DNA of 64,000 nt from Lama guanicoe. Its lineage: Eukaryota. Below, piece after piece: positions 9,600-64,000 of the stretch; within the stretch, counting starts at the first letter, position 1; every line of letters begins with the position of its first letter. The position numbers were made by a program, and so were the translations under genes. The stretch is from contig MU054391.1 of NCBI GenBank assembly GCA_013239625.1, positions 310,001-374,000 of the forward strand. The letters run 5' to 3'. The notes beneath the pieces were generated by a model that saw nothing but the letters and a program-made list of their open reading frames with translations, was not told the origin of the DNA and searched no databases.

Positions 9600-12150
9600 G
9601 AGGAATTGATGAACTTTAAGACGTCTGTGATTAGTATGTGCAAGAATTGGTAAAACAATGAACTTTAGCAGAGGGCTGGAAGCTATAGAAAGACTCCTGG
9701 GAATTCTAGAATTAAAAAATCAGTAGCTGAAACCAGTAACAAACTTGCCAGAAGGGACAGTTAGTGAAGTAGACAGTAAGAGGTGAGCCTCAGAGCAAAG
9801 CACAGAGAGACACAGGAGAGAATCCGTAAGAACAAAGTGCAGGACCTGCTGAACTTGCAGTCGGGCTCTGGAGGGAAAGGAGCCCTGGATGGAGAGAAGT
9901 AATCACTGAACAGATGAAAAGTCTCCAGAGCTGATGAGAGACATCAAGCTGCAGATTTGAGAATCCCATGACCCCCCACTCAGAATAAGCATGAAAGAAT
10001 AAAGAAATAATATTCCAGAACAAACAAAGACAATCAGAAAATCTTAAAAGCAGCCTGGAAAAGAAAAGACATGCCGTTTTACAAAAACAGAAACTGAGAC
10101 CGATAGCTAACTTTCTGACCAAAGAAGCCAGAAGCTTCTGCATAAGAGTGTCTCCAAAAATAATAAAAGCAGATAAATGTGAGTGAAGATTCTATAGGCA
10201 GTGAATGCGTCTTGCTAAAATAAAGGGGAATATAGCAAATTTATTTAAAAGGAGTGGGGCAGGAATTGAAAGGGAATATGAAAAGTTAGAAAAACCTTGT
10301 CAGTTGCCTGAGAGATACTGATTTCCAGTACAAGGGTGTTACTTCAAGTTAAATGCTAGGAGGGAGATCACTTACTGAGAACCAGGGGACAGCGTTCAAA
10401 ATAGAGGGAATCAGAGGGTATTGGGTGAGATTACTGGGATAAAGCACACAATACACAGAAATACAAACCTTTCTATAAACTGAATGGCAAGCGGGGAGCA
10501 CGGAGGGCAGAGAATAAGCTGAGGCAGAGACTGTGAAAGGCAGGTGTCACATAAACACAACGTAAAATGGAACAAGAGATTCAGATTGAAACACCAGCTT
10601 CAGTAAATGTACGTGTGCTTAATGCACTTACTGAAAACGTTTTAGGTTGACTAACAGGGCAAAATCCAAAACTATTTTGTACATAAGCAACACACCTTAA
10701 ACAAAAGGTTAAAAAAAAAGCTCTAAAAGGAAGGGTTAGAACAGAGCGGTGAGTGTCAGTGGTACGAAGTGGGCCTCACTGTTTTCATCTGTGATGGGGC
10801 AGGGTTGTGCAGGAGCCCTAAGAGACGAGGAAGGATGTGCTCTGACTCTGAGGATTCAGCTCTTGATAATTACAACCCAAGGATGGAGCAGAACCTGCCA
10901 CAGGCCGGAAACTGCAGGAGACCTGCGGGGGAACAGGAGGAAACGCAGGCAATTCTCTCAATCCGAGACAGGCACTGACGTTGAAGACTTTGTGTAAGTG
11001 TGTTCGTCAAAATCAAGGTGATCAGGAAGACACTTGCACGGGTAGGTGGAGAATTCTGGTCCCTGACACTGGAGAACACAGCTTTGCTTCAAGTGCACAA
11101 GGAACGTTCTTAGAAGTTTGATCACAAAGAAAACCTACACAATCTCAGAGGAGACTTCAAAAAATTTCAAGGAAAAGAAACGAATACCGGATTTAAAACG
11201 TCAGGTAACGGACCACGAAAGAGCGAGAGACGGGACAAGCCCGCGCGGCGCGGGGGTGGCGCCCCGCGCGGGCTGTTTGCCCGCATTTCCGCGTGTCTGT
11301 CGAGGGGAGGCGCCAGAGAGCGCGGGCCCGGCCCGAGGCTCAGCCGCGCGTCCCCAGCGCCGGCTCCCCAGGCCCCGGGCGCGCCCGCCTCGGGGGCTCC
11401 AGTTCCGACACCCGGACCCCCCCCCCCCCCCGGCCCGCCCGGCCGGCGCGGCGCTGGGTCGCCTTGCCGCGCGTCAGGGACGCGGCTGCCAGCGCCTCGG
11501 GCTAAATTCTCTCCTAAAGCAAATACAAAACAAACAAAAGGAGAAAGCAAGCGCGGGTCAGAATCAGCCACGCAGGGAGGAATCAATGAATTACAACACA
11601 AAGAGCAGAACGAATGTCGGAGAGATACATCTTCATGAAAACCAACCAAATAGGCAAAACTCACAAGCTAACTCAATCAAGAAGAGGAGAAAAACAAGTA
11701 AATTAACTTAGAAATGACAAGGAAAAAACCCCCATAAATCAGCAGAAAAATTTAAAATCCAGGAAACCTGTTGTGCAACTTTATACGTATAAAATGTGAA
11801 CACTAAAATAGGTAAAAATTTCCCTTTGTAGCTCTATGAATTTGACCGTAGTGGTCAGAAAGTTTAAACTAACAGCTTTAAAAGAAGTTGATACAGAGCT
11901 TTCCTGTAGAAGACAAAACTCCCGGATAGTCCAACAGGCAAATTCTATCAAATTTCATAAACGGGGTTATCCCAGTGCCGCTTAAATTATTCTGGAGCAC
12001 AGGGGAAAAGGGAAGCCTCCCATCTGTCTTTATTAGGGGGGAAACATTGACTCCAGAAACAAAGAGTGAAATAAAACAACTGCGAATCACTTTCCTTTAT
12101 GATGCAAAAAAGTGAGCTGTTTGCAAAAGAACGCAGCACATTAAAATACA
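9600..12150 (+). mobile_element. Degenerate L1M, ORF1 to ORF2 (endonuclease/early RT) region
   Basis: ORF1-like AGAAAATCTTAAAAGCAGCC at ~10036. ORF2-like segments at 10600-10720, 11100-11220 and 11500-12110 (GGCAAATTCTATCAAATTT). Interrupted by the GC peak. Confidence 0.75.
11230..11500. promoter_or_regulatory. Short CpG island / GC peak embedded in an old L1
   Basis: About 270 bp that are nearly all G/C with dense CpG and a long C run, flanked on both sides by A-rich L1-like sequence. Confidence 0.7.
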
Positions 12151-12178
12151 GTCCTTCTTTAACGCAGTCACTCGAGCA

Positions 12179-12410
12179 GAGTGGTCCCTGAACTGTAGTC
12201 CGGGGTCCTGAGGTCCCTGAGACACCTAAGGGAGTCTTGAGGCCAACACCGCTTTCAGAACAGTGCGCGGGTGCTGCTTTTCCTACTCCGCTGATACTAC
12301 TCTGACAGTGAGACAAAAACAAAAGCAAGCAAAACCCAACCTCACAAAGGAAGGGTGGGGAGAACGGCCGGCGCCTTAGTGCGAAGGAGGCAGCGGTCCC
12401 AACCATGGGG
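12179..12410 (+). mobile_element. hAT-Charlie DNA transposon fragment (Charlie1-like)
   Basis: AGTGGTCCCTGAACTGTAGTCC...GTCCCTGAGACACC and GCCGGCGCCTTAGTGCGAAGGAGGCAGCGG resemble the remembered Charlie1 terminal region. Confidence 0.5.
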
Positions 12411-26079: not shown

Positions 26080-27270
26080 CTCTGCGAAGGATATAATGCG
26101 ATGGATTTTTCCATTCTCCTGTAATGGTCACTGACACTTCCAGAGTTTCTCTTCTACAAATAATGCAGCCAAGAGGATGACTATGTGTCTCCTTGGGATA
26201 TGCCTGATAGGTTCCTTGAAGCGCAGACAGCGGGGAACGCTGCACGTGCAAATCTGCCGCACGCTCACTGCTGTTCACTGGTGTCTTGGGTGGCAGAGAC
26301 ATTGACACTCTGTGCATCCATTCATGGTCCCACATGGCTCCAGACACTGACCAGAGCGTGGCGATTCTGGGCTGGCATCTTGCTGGAGTTTCACTGTGCA
26401 CCACCCTGACTACTAGTGCCCCCTGCTTCAGTATCGTTATCACTGGGTATTTATCTGTGCACAAGTGTGCTATCTTCTGCCCGTTGTAGCAACCGGGCTC
26501 GGCATTTTGCACTGTCTTACAGCACTTCTCCATGCTGTAGCAGCTAATTCTCTGTGGGCCGTATCGCTCACCACACCTTTCTAACACATCTTGACACTTA
26601 GTAGGAAAAGTAGCCATGCCAATTTTGGTTTCAGAATTCTCTTGTTTACATAAAATTTAAGGGCCATTTTCAAAGCCCATGTAAAACCCTACTGGGATTT
26701 TTATTAGAACCACAGAGAACGTACAGATTCATTAGGGACAGAAGGCATCTTTCTCATAATAGGTGTTTCTATCCACGAATATCATATGTGAATCCCTTGA
26801 TTTTTCATTCATCTTTTTCAAGAAGTGCTAATTTTCTTCTCTGTAGACTCGGTTTTACTGAGCAAACAAACATATCATCTTCAAATAGTAGCAGTTTATT
26901 TTTTGAATCTTTGCCTCTTCTGTTTGTCTTGGACTATTATCTAAGAGGGACACTACCTACAGCACGCTGCCGAGTAGAAATGCTGTCAGCGGCCATCTCT
27001 GTCTCTCTTCTAATCAGCTATAATGTTTGCTCTATTTTCTGGTAAATAACCTTCATTAGTTTTCTGGTGTTTAGTCCTTTTGATTTGCTAAGAGTTATTT
27101 TAGAAAATCATAAATGGGTGTATACTTTGTTCAGATGCTGTTTTTTCTCCATCTATTAAGGAGATCATATGGTTTTTATTTAGTCTGATAGCAATTTTCA
27201 CACAGTCATATGTTTGTAATGTTAAAACCATCTACTCCTTTCTGGGATCACCCTAAATTAGTCTTGATAC
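26080..27270 (-). mobile_element. Old L1M/L1ME ORF2 3' region
   Basis: T-rich antisense L1 motifs: TTCCATTCTCCTG, ACAAATAATGCAGC, CTACTGGGATTTTTATTAGAA, and TCCATCTATTAAGGAGATCATATGGTTTTT. Confidence 0.75.
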
Positions 27271-27309
27271 ATTGTTTTGTTGTTGTTGTTGTGTGTGTAT
27301 GTGTTGTGT

Positions 27310-27790
27310 TTATATTTTGCTACAGATAATTTAAGTAACAAAATGAACAGTCCTGACTTAATACACACAAAAACTCACTGTCAAGTTTTGGAGACGTTCT
27401 GAAGCACACGTGGAACATTCCAGAGCTAACCACATATCAGGCCATAAAACAAGTTGAAATCACTACAAAAACTCAGTGTAAGACATAAAACTTTTCTGAC
27501 CACAGTACTACTGTTAGAAATTAGAAGTAAACTGTTATTTTAACATATAACAGCATAAACAGCATTTGTAAAGTAAATTAAATACTTCGACACATATTAC
27601 TCATAGAGGAAAAGCATATCAAAGAAATTTTAAAAATATGTATAGATAAATAATAACAAAAATACCACATATTAAATCTTTGGAAAACAGCTAAACAGTA
27701 CACAGAGGGCAATTTATAGTCATAGGTACTCAAACTAGAGGGTTTTTTAAGGGCTGAAAAATAATAATTTAAGAATATAAGTAGGCCCCA
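27310..27790 (+). mobile_element. Old L1M endonuclease-region fragment
   Basis: GGAACATTCCAGAGCTAACCACATATCAGGCCATAAAACAAG, TTTTCTGACCACA and CAGCTAAACAGTACACAGAGGGCAATTTATAG. Confidence 0.7.
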
Positions 27791-43949: not shown

Positions 43950-44029
43950 CTAGAGAGAACCGTGGGAGATGCACTTAGAACAGGGGCGTGCCCCTCGGAG
44001 ACGGCAGAGGCCGGGAGCCTGGCACGTAC

Positions 44030-44123
44030 CACAATGACCGCGGCGTTGAGCAGCAAGGGCGCTGAGAACACTAAGGAGACGAACATGCCCCTCGAGTCGA
44101 AGTACTGGTATTTTGAAAACAGC
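44030..44123 (-). CDS. TMEM18: TMEM18 coding exon 4 ([31 protein letters not shown])
   Basis: Acceptor GAAACAG|G and donor GTG|GTACGT. 94 nt. Contains the family signature [13 protein letters not shown]. Confidence 0.97.
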
Positions 44124-45438
44124 CTGTTTCAAGGAAGAAATTAACGGTTACCTGGGGGAACAAAACGGCATTACTGTATATTCTTCGTCTCACACGTTTT
44201 GGGGGGCCCTCGGTGAGGGCAGGACAGCCCACCCTAGGTCCAGAGCCACCCACATGTCTTTTAGGATCTGGACCCTGGACTGCGCTGCCTGGTCTGGAGA
44301 GGATGCAGGGACCCCTCAGCAAAGACACAGGACCCGTGTGCACAGGCAGACAGGTGGGGCAGATGCCCTGCACACGACGTGGCCCTTCCTAACCCCGTGG
44401 GGTAAAGACCCTGTGGCCGCTACGAGGGGCAGGAGCCGCTCCAGGCGCAGGGACAGCTGCCCCAACGCCGCGGCTGGGCCACCTGTCACAGCAGGTGGAG
44501 GGGATCACCACGTCCGGGCACGGCTGTCTTCGGGCAACCCACTCACAACGTCAGTGACAGTCACGAAGCACCGCCCATAGCCCGGCCACGGCACCAAGGG
44601 GCGGACAGCGGGCAGGCGGAGCCCTGCGCTCGGAGCTGTTGGAGGGCAGCGGCTCAGACAACCGGGGTGGTGGGAAGCTGTGTCCTGATCACACTCAGAG
44701 GAAAGGAAGCAGGGATGGCCTGCAGAATGTGCATGTGGGCGCAAGGACGGCTAAACACAGGCTTGAGGACCCAACAGGGCCCAGGGGCTGTGACTCTACT
44801 CTGAGGCCTGTGGGGTCAGGATGCTGATGGACAGGCCTTGTCACCCACAGGCAGCCGGGATGGCGGGGGAAAGGCTGTGCTCCCCTGCCCACTTGTTTCA
44901 AAGGCAGAGGCCACATGACCACCCAAGGGTTCCTGTGTCACCTGCAGGTCTGTTCTAGGAAGCCAGGAGGAGAAGCCGCCCCGGGAGAAGAGATGGCTTG
45001 GGGCAGGTGCAGATGGAGTGGGGATCGGGGAGGGGGGGTAGGATGACTTTATGATGTTTACTGGACATGGTGTGGGCTGCCCAGGTGGTAACACAGTCTG
45101 GCGTCTGGAGACCAGAGCAGGAAAGGACCAGAGGAGAGGGCACTGGCAGGGAAAAAGGCGGATCCCAGCTAGCGGCCTAGAAACCAGGGAACTAGCGTTT
45201 TCAGGACTAAGGAAACAATGGACGGATCACAAGAGCACCTCCACCTCAAGGTGGGGCGTGAGCGCGGTGGGCTGGGAGGATGGGCACCACCACCGCTCAG
45301 GTCTCCTCGTTAAGCAGCCGGAGACACAGGCAGGGGACAGAGAGGGCATTTGCAGAAGGAGAACTGAACGTCTCTGAGCATGTCCTTCAGCTGATGGGCG
45401 TGGTTTCAGACATAGTCACCATGCCCAGGCACGGTTAC

Positions 45439-46740: not shown

Positions 46741-47592
46741 CTCTCACGTGAAGAAATGAAGTGCTATCCACCCCGACCATACATGTTCCTGTGACGCAGA
46801 CTGCCTCACTCCTGTCTTAAGGTAACCTCTTGTTTGGAACTCACACCTTGCTCAAGGTCAAGTGAAAAATCACATTTCAGATTAGGTTTTGCATTTTGTT
46901 AAACTACCAAGCGAAAGTTTAGTGTCTTCCCAAGGTCCACAAGATTAACAGCCTTGGTCCAGCCGCTGAGGTCCTGGCCCACCCTTCCTATGGGAGAATA
47001 CTGCCAACTATTCTGCATCAGAAATGCGGTTTCTCTGACACTTGACCCACTCTTTCTGCCCAACACCCCCTGTGCTCTGATGGGGTGCCTGGGTCAGACA
47101 TCTGTCCCTTATCTCACCTAAGAAAAAGAAATTTTAATCACTCTTTATACCCCCTTCCATGATTTTATTTTCTCTGTGTAACCTTTCTCAATGATTCCAC
47201 CCATCTCGGTTCCCCTTCAGATCCCTGTAGGTCTTAATCTTTAAAACTGATTTGGGCGACGTTATTTTATGCCCAGAACAGAGCAGGCAGTGCACTGAAG
47301 CCCACAGAGGAGAGCACCTTGTACAGAGCGCTTCACCAAACCAAACTCTTCTTTGTGTAACAGGTGTTCAGCACCCTCTTGGGAACAGCAGGTGCTCCTC
47401 CAGAGTCCCTTCAAATCCAGGATCCGAAACACACTTCATAATGCCCAAGAGTGGAACCTGGGTGTGCCCTGAAACCAGAGCAGGACACGTGACAGGAGGG
47501 CCGGGAGGTCTTAAAAATCTCATCACGTGGTGAGGCTACAGAGAAAACACGCACACAGCCATCGGAGCCACGGGACTGCTGATTCTACTCAC

Positions 47593-47713
47593 CCAGGCAC
47601 AGGAAGTGCCCGACCTGCAGCTTGTACCTCTGGGACGAGAAACACGTGAGCAGCAGGCAGAACACGTGGAAGACGGCCAGGCCCACGAGCCACGGCTCCG
47701 TCCAGTCTGTCTG
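47593..47713 (-). CDS. TMEM18: TMEM18 coding exon 2 ([40 protein letters not shown])
   Basis: Acceptor TCCTGCAG|CAG and donor G|GTGAGT. 121 nt, in frame with exons 1 and 3. Contains the TMEM18 motifs DWTEPWL and GHFLCL. Confidence 0.97.
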
Positions 47714-48280
47714 CTGCAGGACACACGAGAAACTCGTCAGGCCTCCCAGAACACGGGGAGGGGGGCAGGGAGCCCTCCTGCACCCGCGTCCGGCGTCCAC
47801 ACGGGGCGGAGAGCTGTGCTGCCTGTTGAACGGAATCGCGCGGCAGGCCGGGAGAGCCTGAAGACCAGCCCCCGTGCGGACAGGAGGAAGCGGACTCCGG
47901 GGTCAGGCACGCACTCGGTTACCCCGGGGTTCCGGCTCCGCAGACCAGGGACTAAGGCCTCGGGAAATCCGGGCCGCCCTAGTTCGCAAGACGTGTTTTT
48001 TACTGGCCGTTCTGCCACACACCCCGCCCTCCAGACACTGCTGCGACTCGAGTCTGCTCCGCCCTGGGTGGACACGTCCTCATGGTAGAACGCGGGCCCC
48101 TCCCTAGGCGAGGGCCCCCCTGGGGGGACGGGGGCCGGAGGAGCAGCCCGCGCCCAACCACTCTGCCCACCGCGGGTCCGCTCTGCCCGGACCTTCCCGC
48201 GCCCCGACGCGGGAAGCATCCCCGCGGCCCGGCCCCGCCCCAGGCCCCACCCTCTACACCCCGCCCACCAAGGCAAGCCT

Positions 48281-55599: not shown

Positions 55600-57100
55600 A
55601 TCATGGTCACCGGTGTTTGCGCACGTCGCTTACTTGGTAACAACAGTGGACACACAGCCGTCCGGCGCCTGCCGGTGCCGAGCGTTGCCCGTTCTCCCCC
55701 GGCACCAGGAACTCGCAGAGCGCACGCACTCAGTGTGGCTTTTGTAATTTCAAAACAAAAGGAAAACAGCGAAAGTACATACAGAATGTATGAGGAGTAA
55801 ATGATTTCCCTCTAGCCGTCTGGTTATTCCTTTCAGCTTACCCAGCTTTACTCGCCGTTAACTATCTTAAGGTCTGTCGCGATGATCCATCCTAACAGCA
55901 ACGAGCAAACGACCGGGCGTCGCGCAGACTCGCCTCCGGTCCCGGACGGGGAGCTTCGCGGAGGCGCCAGCGGGCGCCTGCACGGCCGCGTCCGGCCGCT
56001 GGAGGGCGCGCCCCGCGGTCCGCCTCCAGGCTTGGTCCGGCCGCGACGCCGCGTCCCTCGCCTCTCTGATCCTTGAGCGGAGACTGCCTGTGACGTTTGC
56101 ACCGCCCTGTTGATAACTCTTGGCACTTTTCGTGCCTTCAGTTAACCTCAAGGCTGGATCATTATTCAAGTGGGTGTGTCGGGGAGAGCGGCTGCCCGTG
56201 CAGGGGGAGCTGGGGACCCCGGACGGACCCGGCGGGACGAGCCCGCGGCCGGCGTCCGAGCGCGCTCTGCGAGAGGACTGGGAAGAAACGCTGGGCGGGG
56301 GGATGGAGCTCGGGGCTGCAGGCTTCTCCGGGTCAGAGGTTTGCTGCAGGTGGCACTGCTTTGCAGACGCAGCTCAGAAACAATTCCCGGCAGGAAGCCT
56401 TCTGTTTGGAAATAAAAAGTCAGGTGACGGCAGCAGTGCCGAGCGCTCGGGGCGTCCGGCGCCAGGAAGGACCAGTGCCTCCTCTCCCGCGGCCCGGGGC
56501 GTGTGCCCCCCCCCCCCGCCACCCCGGGAGGCCGAGGCCGGGAGGTCCCTGCCGGGGTTGGGGGGGGGTTGGTCCTGGAGACCCCGGTCTGCTCCCGAGG
56601 TGGAGAGGCGCCGGGAGACACGGCCGGCGGCGCTGAGGTCTGAGGTCGGGGGCCCAGCCCGAGGCGCCTCGGGGCCTGGATGGACTCTTCTCAGGCTGCA
56701 GAGGGAGCGGTGTGAAACCCCCAGCAAACTGTCACTGTGACTCTCCCTCGTGGTGGAAACGCGCGGAGTGGGAGGACACGGGGCGGGAGCGGGGGTCCCG
56801 ACTCGGACGGTGCCCTCTGGGCGGAGGGAGTGACGAGGCTGCTGTCACCTGAAGGGCCTCGGGGGACCGAGACGGAGGAACTGGGGCGGCACCGGGGTCT
56901 GGGCACCACTGGTCGGGTCGGGGCTGGGAGCATTTCAGGGTGGGCGCAGCCCTAACGCTGGCATTTCACTCTGCGCCCTCATGCAGGGCCGGGCACCGCT
57001 CATTCCTGGGGTCCTGGCTGTACCCCAGGCCGCCACCTGAGGATGTGGGCGCCGACCGGAGGACGGAGGGCACTGTAGACAGAGGACTGAGCTTCCGCAG
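55600..57100. promoter_or_regulatory. Orphan CpG island
   Basis: Very GC- and CpG-dense (e.g. 55910-56060, 56200-56660). No recognisable coding exon. Confidence 0.75.
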
Positions 57101-58479
57101 CGTCACGTTCGTGCAGGCCCTGGTTTAATTCCACTGCGTCTCTTGACTCCACCATCACGTTCGGGCTCGGGGTCACCTGGCCCCTCCTCCCTCCTGTGTA
57201 CCTGGCACTGTCCTCTCTTGTGGTGGCAAATGCTGCTGCCTTGAATTCTGTGGTGTGAATCCAGCCCAGAACTGATGCGTCTCAGCTCGGAAACCCCGCT
57301 TTCTTTTCCGCACGGAGACCCACCTGCGCGTCCCTCGGGTACAGGGGTCGTGGGAACTGTCGGCCTGTCTTTGCAGTTCCCTTGGCCCGTGTTAGGCAGT
57401 CCTGGGGCTCCTGCACAGACAGTAGTAGCTGAACACAGACGCCGCCTTAAGACTCTTTAAACCAAACTTTCTATATTTATTCAGAAATGCGCACTGTTAA
57501 CCAGGGTCATGAGACTAACGTGTGTTCTCAAAACCCCAGGTTTCTTCTTGAACCTCCTCGGGTGACATTTGTTTGTCTTTTTCAAGCCAGGAGAGAAAAC
57601 TTTACTTTCAAAACCCAGTCTTTAAGTAAAGGACAGCAAAGGTGTCCCCTCCACGTCCCGCCAGCACTGCGTCCACGGCGGCTGTCTGCCCGAGGACAGC
57701 CTGCACCTGCACTAAAATAGATGTGGAAACACCGCTGTGGTCACCTGGTGGACCTGTTCATTGCTGTGGCCACGGAGAGGAGCAGAGCGCCTCAGGTCCC
57801 GACCTGGCGCCTCCTGCGGCTTAGGGTCTGGGGACCTGTAACCGGTGGTGGTTCCAGGGGTGTATTGCGGGAATAATTTCTGCTTGTATGCAAGTAGCAC
57901 TATTTCCTAGAAAAAGTAACTGAATGTGAGAGCTGCTGGACTTTTGCCAAAATAGTTTCTCATAAGAAAAGTTAGGTGTTTGCTTGAAAAATATGTGTAT
58001 TGACTAGTCAGTCATAGATGAGATTAGATTTTCAGCCCCATTCATTAAAAAATGATTAAGTATGAAAGGAATCTCATTTTAAAGCATGACTGAGATACAG
58101 TCACGCTGGTTACTTCACGGGGTGTCTGCACAAGGGTGCTTTCTCATGGCGACATGTGGAGCACAACTGGGGGAGGAGGAGGTGTGACAGCTGGGGACAC
58201 TGTTCCTGTGGCTGGATATCAAATATGAGCCTAGTGGGGAAAGAGGGGGCGTCACTGACACCAGCCTGGATGGACTGAGTAAGTGACACCAAGTGTGATA
58301 TTTGACACTCAGAGGGGGACGACCAGCACAGAGCTTGTGGAAACGGAGAGGAGGGAGACCCGAGAGGGATAGAGATGAACAGCATCTCCGTCTTCAGAAG
58401 GCTGCAGGGGTTATCGTTCCAGAGCAGAAATTAGAACAAAATTTAAACAGAGGACATTTTAAATGCATTAAAAAAGCTT

Positions 58480-60071: not shown

Positions 60072-60699
60072 GGTCAGTGACCTTCTGCAGGGTCGGTGGG
60101 GCCAGCCCTGGGTGAAAGGCTTAGTGGACGTGGGGTCTCTCCTGAAGAAGCGTCCTCAGACAGCCTTCAGAGGTTCCCTCCATCCCCCCATGAGTGTGTC
60201 TGTATCAGAGGAAAACAAGAGGCAGAGTTTCAAAGGGAGAGGCAAGAAAATAACCTAGAAGTTCCCTTTCTTGCACAGAAGTCCAAGCACCCCCTCAACT
60301 TCAGTGATTGCAGGTTTGAAATTTTCTATAGGGATTCACGAGTCATCCTGAAAATCACATAGAAGACTGAAGATTTTTTGATGGCGAAATTGTGACTTTG
60401 TAGGCAGGGCCCAGCCGCGAGATTTGAGCACTCATCAAGGTGACATGGGTCAGAGTTGGGCTGCAGACGACACGCTTGAGCTGACTTTCAGGTAAAGCAT
60501 GGTTTTCTGTCAACACAGACAGTTTGAACTGGAATGAGATGCTTTAAGACACTGAGAACTAGTCAGAGCAAAACAGCTCGTCAAAGAGGGAAGCAGCCGT
60601 GGTGGATCCGATTTTACTGTGTCTGTGAGAAAAGACGTGGCTGGAGTTTTTGAAACGCGTGTCTCCCCCCGTGAACATGCAGGACGCGTGAACACCTTC

Positions 60700-61600
60700 C
60701 GCAGAGGCAACTGGGGCCCCTAGGCCGCAGCGCGGCCCCGGGACGGAGGCTCCGCGTGGGGCACCCGCGCGTCCCGGGGGCGCCCTGGGCCCGAAGCCCT
60801 CCCTGCGCGAAGCCGCGCCCGGAGGCCTCCCCGCCCGGAGCCCAGGGCCCGTCCACCTGCGCTGAGCCGCGGCCTCCCCGGGGTGGGGTGGGGCCTCTGG
60901 GTCAGCAGCGCGTCCCTCTCCCGGGACTCGTTTCCACTTCTCGTCCTCACATTTTCTCCACTTGGTCCTTTCGCTGTTTGTAACGTGGGGAAAGCAGTGT
61001 GAGTGCTGACGCAGCTGGTCAGCCAGCTGGTGTCACTTGCCGTTTTTTAAAGGATGGACTTGAAGGCGATCTTTCAGGTTTTATTGGTGCTCTGGCCTCA
61101 CCTAACAAGCCGCTGGAGGAGGGCGACGTGAAAACGAGGCACTCTGGCCGGCGTGGTAGAATCTGATGCAAGGAGTGAGAGGAGCGACTTATCGGCCAAC
61201 AAAACGCAGCGGAGAAAGCAAAGCAGACGAGTGCGACGGCGACGCGGCGCCCAAGGCGGGCGGCCAGGCTGCTCGTCGTGGGCTGCGGGAGGGAGCACGT
61301 GCCTCTCGGACCGCGCGGCTCGCCTGCAGCGGCAGGGCTCACCGTCCGCATCCGCGAGCCGCCGCTGCCCAGGGAGCATCCGCGAGCATCCGGGAGCATC
61401 CGCGAGCATCCGCGAGCATCCGCGAGCCCCCGCTGCACCTGGCGGCGCGAACCGAGGAGCAGGACTCGCAGGCCGCCGCGTGGGCGGGTTTGCGGCCCCG
61501 GCGCGCCGGCTTCCCCGCCGCGCAGCGGAGACGCGCCCCTTCCCGCTCCAACGAGCCTGGCGTCTGAGCTCCAGCGTACCGCGTTTGGAGATCGCTAATG
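60700..61600. promoter_or_regulatory. Orphan CpG island with internal 10-bp tandem repeat
   Basis: CpG-dense blocks at 60720-60930 and 61130-61590. Confidence 0.75.
61371..61430. repeat. 10-bp tandem repeat (CGCGAGCATC) x ~6
   Basis: AGGGAGCATC CGCGAGCATC CGGGAGCATC CGCGAGCATC CGCGAGCATC CGCGAGCCCC. Confidence 0.92.
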
Positions 61601-62869
61601 CTCGAAACTAGACACTTAGTTTGACTGGCTTAACTTCAAAAACAATAACTGAACTTAAATAACCGGACTGTGAGTGGAAGAGAAAAGGAGGCAAGAGCGT
61701 GGAGACGGATGTGAACACCACAGCAGGAGCAGTCTCCTCTCCTCCCTCCAGCGGGCGCTGCGGGTCTCAGTTCAGTTCTGGCTACTTCTCCATGTTTGAT
61801 TTTTAAAATTATTTTAAGTAGCAAATTTTGACTTGCCCGATGGTTTTGAAAGTAGTTACAATTTTTAAATTTTTTTTTATTTCTGGTTTTCCCAAAATGC
61901 GAAGGAACAGATGTCTTAGGGCTGATGCCGCCTTTCCCGATCACGTGCTTGGGACTTCTGCCGTCTTGGTACGAAGGAAACGCTTAATTCAGGTGTGTTC
62001 TAGAACACGAGACTCGGGCTGGAGCGGGTATTTTCAGGGAACAATTTCATGCTGTTAACTTGAAAAAAGTGCTAGGCTGGCTGCATGCACTTGACAAAAT
62101 GCTCCTCTTTAAAAATACGTACAGTGGTAATAGTCCCAGAGACAGTTTGTAATTTCTTTGTTGTGGTAAAAATCTAGCACATTCTGATCTACTTGAGATG
62201 TAAACATGTGTGTGAACCATACGTGGTGAATTCTTTGGTCTAATACCTTTGTTGTCAGGATAACCTGGCATCTCAGAAAAGTGATGTCATTCCATTTAAA
62301 TAGCATGAAAAAATAAGCAGTTATTTTTATCTATATAAAACAGTATTTGGAGACAAGATACATGCTAGAAGCTGTAGAATGTACTTTTCTTTTATGACTG
62401 AGTTGCAAAATAGGATTCCCAGGATGATTACAGTTTATAACAAAAGCCTCCGAAAATAATGCAAAGAATCGTGGTCACGGGTGTGTCTGCTTCCTCATCC
62501 CTTCCCGCCTCCCTCCACCGTGAGAAATGCACGTGGTTATTCCATTTATTATAACTCTTTCTGTGGTGGTAAACGTTGGGAAAGCCTACGGGTTTGCTGT
62601 TAGTAGAATAGAATTAGGCGCTGGAGAACCACTCCACTATCTGGAGTGATAAATCACATTTACATGCAGTAACCAATTACATCAAAAGCAAGAAACAAAA
62701 TGAGACGTATCTCACCGTATTAAGTATGTGAATTAAAATACATGAAGAACATATCGTCTGTTTTTTCACCCACGTGGCAACAAAGACATCCATTGATCGT
62801 GGCAGAGTGAGTGCCTGTGGGAGGGAGAGCACAGACCAGGAACGGAGGACAAGGGGACAAAATAGAAAA

Positions 62870-64000
62870 TGAGGTCATTTATCGTAAATGAAAATGGTCT
62901 AATACACCAACGAAAAGTCAGAGGTTGTCAGAATGAATTTTTTAAGTGACTGAAAGAAGATGTTTAAAGGAAACCCACTTCAAAAATAGTGACACACATA
63001 GGATCAAAATAAAAGGGTGTAGATAAATGGACCAGCACACTTTAATTAAATTTAAATTTAAAAAGCAGGAATTATTGTATCAACATCACATAAAGTAAAC
63101 TTCAGGGCAAAAAGTTACGAGAGACGGAGGTAAATACTACCTCTGGGTAGAAACCTTGGCGGCACAGCAGAAGGCATAGCGACCCTGAGCGCCCGCCACC
63201 AACCAGGGCTTCCACACACAGGAGACCCGCGCCAATACGGAGCTGAGCAAGGAGCACACGGGCCCCACTGGCCAGCGGCAACTTCGCAACAACGGACGCA
63301 GCTCTCAGAAAGTCACCGCAGGCAGAGGGCAGCTGGACACCAGGGGCGGTGGAGCTAAGGGACATTTACTCACGGACACGTCCATCCAGAGTCCACAGAA
63401 CACTCACCAAAATGCACCACGTCTTAGTTCATATGAAAAGCTGAACAATTTTAAAATACTTGAAACCATGCCAAGAGTGTTCTCAGACCAAATGGAATTG
63501 AACTAGAAATCAATAAAATAAAAACAATAAGAAAATCCTTGAAAATAAAAATTAACAGAACATTTTAAAATAATTCATGTGTCAAAGAGAAAATTTCACA
63601 TAAAATAAGAATAAATCAGACAGACATTAATACAAAAGGAAATATGACATTATCAACACCATGGGAAGCAGCTAAGCCAGGCCGAGAGGGGAACGCACAG
63701 CAGGAAATGCTAGCACTCACGAGGGCGACGTCCTTGAACAAACGGGCTGTGCTCCCGGCTCAGGAGAACACAGGAGATAAACCCCATCATGGAAGAGCAA
63801 GGGGGTGGGGCAGAAACCCTAGAGTTGAAAAAAAAGAAATAATACAGATCATCTATGAAACAAACAATTGGTTCTTTTCAAATATTTTTTAAAATGACAA
63901 ACTTCTAGTGAGACAGCAAATGGTAAAAAGAGAAAAGATACAAGCTACCAACGTGAGTGGTGTCACGTCACCGCCACTCACAGGAATCACAAGAATGTAT
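62870..64000 (+). mobile_element. Old L1M ORF2 endonuclease region, running off the window
   Basis: AAATGGTCTAAATACACCAACGAAAAG, TGTTCTCAGACCAAATGGAATTGAACTAGAAATCAATA, and TGAAACAAACAATTGGTTCTTT. Confidence 0.8.

Follow-up and report, generated by a model that had tools for sequence, protein, structure and literature searches.

In the 64-kb stretch of Lama guanicoe DNA analysed here (the window), a GC- and CpG-rich block of 275 bases stands within an old L1 element, at a point where the element itself lacks about 250 nt. We put at about one half the probability that this block was made in place by a long-lived hotspot, at which GC-biased gene conversion (gBGC) and error-prone break repair overwrote the L1 letters. 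Judged by its sequence, the block is a candidate orphan CpG island. The nearest identified gene is TMEM18, with exon matches on the minus strand at 44021-44125 and 47591-47722, 32.5 kb from the block, in agreement with the original prediction that the block lies in the region downstream of this gene.

A CpG-rich block inside a collinear L1 relic

The host element is recognisable through four nhmmer matches that are each weak individually and yet collinear, namely L1 reference positions 360-527 at 9915-10068 (E 0.61), 1178-1326 at 10565-10710 (E 0.02), 1731-1827 at 11061-11145 (E 6e-4) and 2519-2690 at 11865-12024 (E 9e-5); the identity is about 65% at confidently aligned columns of a profile that draws on 59 L1 loci in this genome and is not subfamily-matched. 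With a composition-calibrated pair-HMM, the end of the left flank of the block falls right on the TDH codons, at reference position 1866 (21.5 bits vs -2.8 elsewhere), 11503-11660 maps to reference end 2300, and the right-flank pieces 11503-11760 and 11770-12024 reach 21 and 38 bits, respectively, at their L1 places. The anchors are 285 nt apart at the block, compared with 258 nt (86 codons) in the same-genome reference L1 and 230-319 nt in 46 L1 copies, and the other three anchor-to-anchor gaps of the relic are 8-24% short. The collinear flanks and the matching length support the original prediction that the L1 segment was replaced or rewritten in place rather than just interrupted, and its count of 95 codons between the anchors (TDH to LNSLLKQ), against about 86 in L1, holds for the same-genome copy as well. 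Elsewhere in the window, at 26844-27726, old L1 ORF2 pieces adjoin in opposite orientations, possibly representing an inverted L1.

Table 1. Features of the block and its host element, in positions of the window
Feature	Position	Strand	Basis
Old, heavily decayed L1 relic, ORF1 end to early ORF2, one collinear element	9915..12024	+	nhmmer
Milder GC-raised patch, still at its L1 place	10750..10900	+	52% GC vs 34% in old copies; 0/40 shuffles
Left L1 anchor, end of endonuclease region to DH codons	11061..11216	+	mapping to reference end 1866
Stop-free frame, 197 codons	11118..11711	+	by-product of GC richness, not preserved ORF2
Left CpG halo in L1-derived sequence	11178..11227	.	6 CpG in 50 bp, GC not raised
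GC/CpG block, CpG island by sequence	11228..11502	.	composition, fitted edges, homology tests, donor searches
15-nt inverted repeat, 14/15 complementary, 7-nt loop	11238..11274	.	matched by 1/60 shuffles
C15 run (11417-11431) and adjacent C tracts; predicted G-quadruplex motif	11411..11440	-	motif match
Right L1 flank	11503..12024	+	pair-HMM mapping

CpG islands are defined by a length of at least 200 bp, GC above 50% and a CpG o/e above 0.6. The block satisfies this definition by sequence, with 46 CpG, GC of 0.83 and o/e of 0.99 over the 273 bp at 11230-11502. The abrupt switch from A-rich L1 to GC and back is there, with fitted edges at about 11228 and 11502, and so are the roughly 270 bp of GC- and CpG-rich sequence, although 0.83 is short of the near-pure GC that had been claimed. 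The block contains the top 200-bp GC of the whole window. In 464 kb of the contig there are 17 peaks that reach 76% GC or more; the block ranks third among them by maximum GC and, with one peak set aside for an unmeasurable flank, has the lowest mean flank GC (0.49 and 0.36). The best 500 bp over the block have a GC of 0.648 and a CpG o/e of 1.03. Further along the contig, at 409709-410069, there is an isolated peak of 79% GC, also with low-GC flanks (0.40 and 0.48).

The block is real and shared among close relatives

Could the block be an artefact or chimera of the assembly? The contigs of two of the four runs compared break at the C15 run, and at the C15 run alone. In the other two runs, however, a single contig spans 10400-12400 with 6-7 substitutions and one gap, read depth is even across both block junctions in every one of the four and flat outside the C15 run, and 20 DNA runs from 7 studies, under 5 organism labels, contain 0.71-0.93 of the words of this stretch. 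No RNA run was listed beside them, which says nothing about expression. The artefact reading is refuted by the spanning contigs, and we give it next to no weight. The original prediction had itself named a misassembly and a second copy of the block as observations that would speak against it; neither was found, in view of the spanning contigs and of the searches of the animal's own genome described below.

The contig comparison covers 4 of the 20 runs and the 2 kb at 10400-12400, and the block is present under all 4 organism labels compared, which limits how newborn, in the words of the original prediction, the island can be. There are 9 substitution sites across these 2 kb, 3 of them within the block and all three C/G exchanges; CpG transitions between runs number 0 among the 46 CpGs of the block and 1 among 46 flank CpGs, counts too small to discriminate. 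At 11371-11373, two sites carry a G/C swap relative to the window in all four runs, which reflects either an allele private to the sequenced animal or an error in the consensus of this assembly. Both spanning contigs are 1 base shorter than the window, and if the missing base falls in the C run, the frame at 11118-11711 would be shifted in those animals.

This sharing raises the possibility that the island is old, that is, already present in distant outgroups (for example, as a conserved orphan enhancer near TMEM18) rather than lineage-specific. Its presence under all 4 labels, with C/G differences only and no CpG transition, is compatible with such an age, as is a CpG o/e of about 1.0, similar to that of the remaining islands of the window. 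Yet the block sits inside a collinear L1 and hence is younger than the insertion of that element, and the CpG transition counts are too small to separate the readings; we consider an old island improbable.

The open reading frame follows from GC richness

The original prediction stressed that the reading frame is still open across the block and that its start is L1-like. The frame is indeed open for 197 codons, but this openness is not meaningful, because all three plus-strand frames cross the block without a stop (11235-11500). The frame also starts out of the L1 register: the L1-aligned codons at 11119-11145 belong to the frame of ORF 11114-11638, not to that of 11118-11711, so that the N-terminus quoted as L1-like is out of register. 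Shuffling the core leaves the frame open in 1421 of 2000 cases (71%), and of 1000 piecewise shuffles, 204 contain an open stretch of 197 codons or more in some one of the six frames; end-to-end openness of the 11118-11711 frame itself is seen in just 16 of 2000. The frame has 0 Pfam families, no convincing match in the PDB (best E 0.5) and no protein homologue that passes among 1221 candidates. Thus, we have to regard the open frame as a trivial effect of GC richness that carries no information.

The core bears no recoverable signature of L1

The most literal form of the original model is a point-by-point repainting of the L1 segment by gBGC, in register. The length match is as this model would have it, and a forced Viterbi alignment of the core to L1 resembles, convincingly at first sight, a clean A-to-G and T-to-C conversion. 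This signal had to be rejected, given that shuffles, four unrelated islands and the reverse complement of the core score alike (z -1.5 to 1.3); the weak-to-strong look is produced by the alignment itself, GC-rich against A-rich DNA. Forced alignments of this kind always mimic weak-to-strong conversion, so shuffle and power controls are required whenever a GC-rich sequence is aligned to A-rich L1.

Under such controls, nothing of L1 emerges. When both anchors are kept in place and long gaps are permitted, the L1 score of the core is matched by 116 of 200 shuffles (z -0.27); at the syntenic place, the core scores -13.9, or -5.8 with the C run shortened, compared with -9.7 +/- 4.7 for shuffles, and not a single core position aligns to L1 at a posterior of at least 0.7. 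When allowed to float freely on 2344 profile columns, the core does not pick its syntenic L1 place, in a test that is weaker, recovering 8-20 of 20 controls without extra exchange. Slices at the core edges yield at most a right-side hint (4 of 60 and 5 of 50 shuffles at best). The slice 11457-11536 did map (0 of 40 shuffles) but contains the L1 anchor, and when its GC part alone is shuffled, 4-19 of 60 shuffles do as well; an inverted L1 segment was likewise rejected as the source of the core (reverse complement z -0.5).

The anchored test has power. Flanks of the relic remain recognisable when painted to 83% GC (z 3.5-12.4, 20 of 20), and so do painted flanks with 10% extra C/G exchange (z 1.9-10, 20 of 20) and simulations at the divergence of the flanks (z 4.9-12.8, 14 of 14). 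Only at about twice the flank divergence, combined with long rearrangements, was the signal lost in simulation, with z at or below 0.6 in 6 of 14 runs. Under the weak-to-strong model, then, the ancestral L1 sequence in the core is untraceable (z -0.27, with 40 of 40 painted controls at z of at least 1.9). In the same relic, 10900-11060 has 52% GC, 7 CpG and roughly the right length and does not map to L1 either (39 of 40 shuffles score equally); signal loss is accordingly not unique to the core, and parts of the relic are too decayed.

The simple repainting is thereby largely refuted, all the more so because the right edge of the block is a step and the GC of the shoulders is not raised (see below), and we hold it to be very unlikely. 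What survives of the proposal that an intense gBGC hotspot made the island out of L1 is a version with extra turnover, that is, with indels and template switches.

Edges, shoulders and internal structure

The right edge of the block is a step: widening the transition to 20 bp lowers the log-likelihood by 4.7 units, and widening it to 40 bp by 6.6. The left edge spans no more than about 20 bp, in a fit that assumes independent bases and so overstates the sharpness. The same fit finds graded edges at an alignable patch near 63 kb, unlike the right edge of the block. The two shoulders carry 9 CpG per 200 bp compared with 27 per 1635 bp (p=0.012), about 3 times the density of the rest of the relic, with p about 0.01 at 50, 100 and 150 bp; the excess is mainly on the left, the first 50 bp of the right shoulder having 0 CpG. 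Shoulder GC, in contrast, is 0.39-0.40 versus 0.41 in the remaining relic, so there is no GC rise. We expect graded GC shoulders of a gBGC tract, from the spread of conversion tracts, and this expectation fails at the block, with its sharp edges and flat shoulder GC. A CpG halo without a GC halo would fit methylation protection better than a conversion gradient.

Within the core, inverted 7-mers number 40 vs 20.7, a count reached in 1 of 300 shuffles, compared with 14-214 of 300 for five other island stretches; together with the inverted repeat in Table 1, this excess is what template switching would leave. The overall folding of the block is no better than that of shuffles (z 0.01). An internal direct pair of 32 nt is matched by 8 of 200 shuffles, and the direct 7-mer excess of the core is found in other islands too. 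A tandem-repeat origin was rejected, just the C15 run and a weak 9-mer being seen.

The search for a donor

So could the block be a foreign GC-rich piece? On this account, a break-repair patch or the remnant of the CpG-rich 5' end of a retrocopy would have been inserted, about 250 nt of L1 would have been lost either along with it or subsequently, and the newcomer would then have stayed unmethylated and drifted away from its donor. The absence of an L1 signal in the core, the step-like edges and the CpG halo without a GC halo, as from spreading hypomethylation, are all compatible with such an origin. Templated insertions of 73-414 bp have been obtained by experiment, among them a class that lacks both target-site duplication and poly(A), in the portions of PMC5110952 consulted.

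No donor has come to light in any search, although matches that are old or short would escape these searches. In the animal's own genome, there is no second match to the whole block or to three parts of it, in a DNA search whose paralogue hits were confined to about 70-80% identity over 75-235 nt and which missed the L1 kin of the relic; two of the six core frames, when translated, match only themselves in that genome. Among the surrounding 464 kb, the best candidate donor scores 33.7 bits (shuffles 28.3-37.4), the contigs of 4 runs contain no donor at 80% likeness, and Rfam gives 0 matches to the block at E up to 1. The L1 5' UTR was rejected as a donor, its best score among 16 stretches upstream of L1 copies, 24 bits, being within the shuffle range of 19.7-34. 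The edges of the block show no direct repeat of at least 10 nt, hence no target-site duplication, and its A-rich right flank is L1 by mapping rather than a poly(A) tail; L1-mediated insertion (retrocopy, class 1 TSIP) would be recognised by these two marks, neither of which the block shows. A foreign insertion further requires that the deletion matched the insert within about 10% by coincidence, and PMC5110952, in its sections on the subject, speaks of microdeletions. All things considered, an inserted piece is the main rival of an origin in place at a hotspot, though to us the less likely of the two.

GC gain in the surrounding region

Milder cases of GC gain are found nearby. Besides the patch at 10750-10900 (Table 1), 63130-63384 has 62% GC and 16 CpG (native GC 35%) and 63670-63800 has 57% GC and 7 CpG, each mapping to its L1 place (0 of 40 shuffles in both cases). 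Weak-to-strong changes at 63685-63784 affect 19 of 44 sites and strong-to-weak changes 2 of 14. These two patches belong to a second L1 relic and are cleaner cases of in-place weak-to-strong change than the block. In the flanks of the block, weak-to-strong rates are 0.22-0.27 vs 0.055-0.135 in 18 control L1 copies, which helped build the profile, so that the control rates are biased low.

Larger CpG islands lie upstream of TMEM18 at 55781-57480 and 60541-61700 (o/e 0.79 and 1.0), the latter containing a 10-mer tandem array at 61374-61427. Over contig positions 1-464000, GC and CpG o/e climb inward: they start at 39% and 0.17 over the first 10 kb and reach 50-57% and 0.5-0.6 past 140 kb, the reverse of a simple telomere gradient. 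The first 10 kb, with 39% GC, contain 2 TTAGGG and 0 CCCTAA and no array of telomere repeats.

How strong would the conversion bias have to be? In our model, 83% GC requires B of about 4-6 over the whole life of the element, and more if the episode was shorter. The same model predicts G above C in the block, and the two are about equal in the core once the C15 run is excluded. Human gBGC is described as near-neutral on average, strong in 1-2% of the genome and acting in short episodes (PMC4510005, in the parts consulted). With strength confined to short episodes, a stable, PRDM9-independent hotspot would be needed for the block.

Origin of the block

A long-lived hotspot that combined gBGC with error-prone repair appears to us to accommodate most of these facts. 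In this scenario, regional gBGC would have raised GC in patches; the patch at the block would have turned CpG-dense and unmethylated and gone on attracting breaks; small insertions, deletions and template switches may then have scrambled the L1 register while length was roughly kept; and low methylation would have spared new CpGs in the adjoining L1. At hotspots, indels are reported to be up 100-fold or more per break, leaning toward insertions, with template switching (PMC7615360, in part). Such churn accounts for the length match (285 vs 258 nt), the missing donor, the excess of inverted 7-mers and the in-place A/T-to-G/C patches nearby, all of which support it; it does not account for the sharp edges. 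Also counting against this scenario are the absence of an L1 signature in the core, the flat shoulder GC beside the step at the right edge, the near equality of G and C, and the start of the contig, where telomere proximity is not shown. We rank the hotspot above an insertion in part because, by our own estimate, islands born from gBGC greatly outnumber foreign patches of matching length.

In a bolder extension, a self-reinforcing hotspot would have erased the 250-base stretch completely. What remains would be an unmethylated island with sharp edges, serving today as an enhancer or promoter, specific to the lineage, in the region downstream of TMEM18. We regard this as a long shot; if true, the block would end a series whose earlier, still alignable stages, at 52%, 57% and 62% GC, are found within the same 64 kb. 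The block would matter more only if outgroups showed that it arose in one lineage and chromatin linked it to TMEM18.

Comparison with known systems

A literature search, confined to titles, found none on this locus, and we make no claim of absence from print. The route itself is a known one: in the dog, gBGC generates new CpG islands, most of them intergenic (PMC4350167, in part), and the sources named for species-specific orphan CpG islands are gBGC and transposon insertion (PMC11170920, likewise in part). Since gBGC-born intergenic CpG islands have thus been described, the block would be a further case. If the hotspot reading is true, it would be a saturated example of the known route from repeats to CpG islands, one that implies that such islands can lose every trace of their origin.

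In its particulars, the block resembles the dog gBGC islands and GC peaks, as characterised in the parts of PMC4350167 and PMC4053742 consulted, in being short, intergenic and CpG-dense, with a high o/e and weak-to-strong patches in the region. It differs from the dog GC peaks in being much shorter than their mean of 965 bp and in failing the 1.5-fold rule for 500 bp relative to 10 kb (0.648 / 0.516 = 1.26; PMC4053742, in part). Like the species-specific orphan CpG islands of PMC11170920, as far as its passages on them go, it appears to lie away from promoters, the nearest identified promoter island being that of TMEM18, at about 36 kb. Templated insertions of class 2, in the portions of PMC5110952 that describe them, share with the block its size, a sharp junction and the lack of target-site duplication and poly(A); unlike them, the block has no donor that we could find, and the loss of about 250 nt exceeds the microdeletions described. 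Finally, hypomethylated, PRDM9-independent hotspots are reported to be active in many mammals (10.1101/2023.11.17.567540, in part), and those at hypomethylated CpG islands of placental mammals are the kind of long-lived hotspot that the explanation of the block needs. Unlike the block, the hotspots of that study, as its main text presents them, are loci of conserved hypomethylation defined from mouse; the words "camel" and "alpaca" occur 0 times in that main text.
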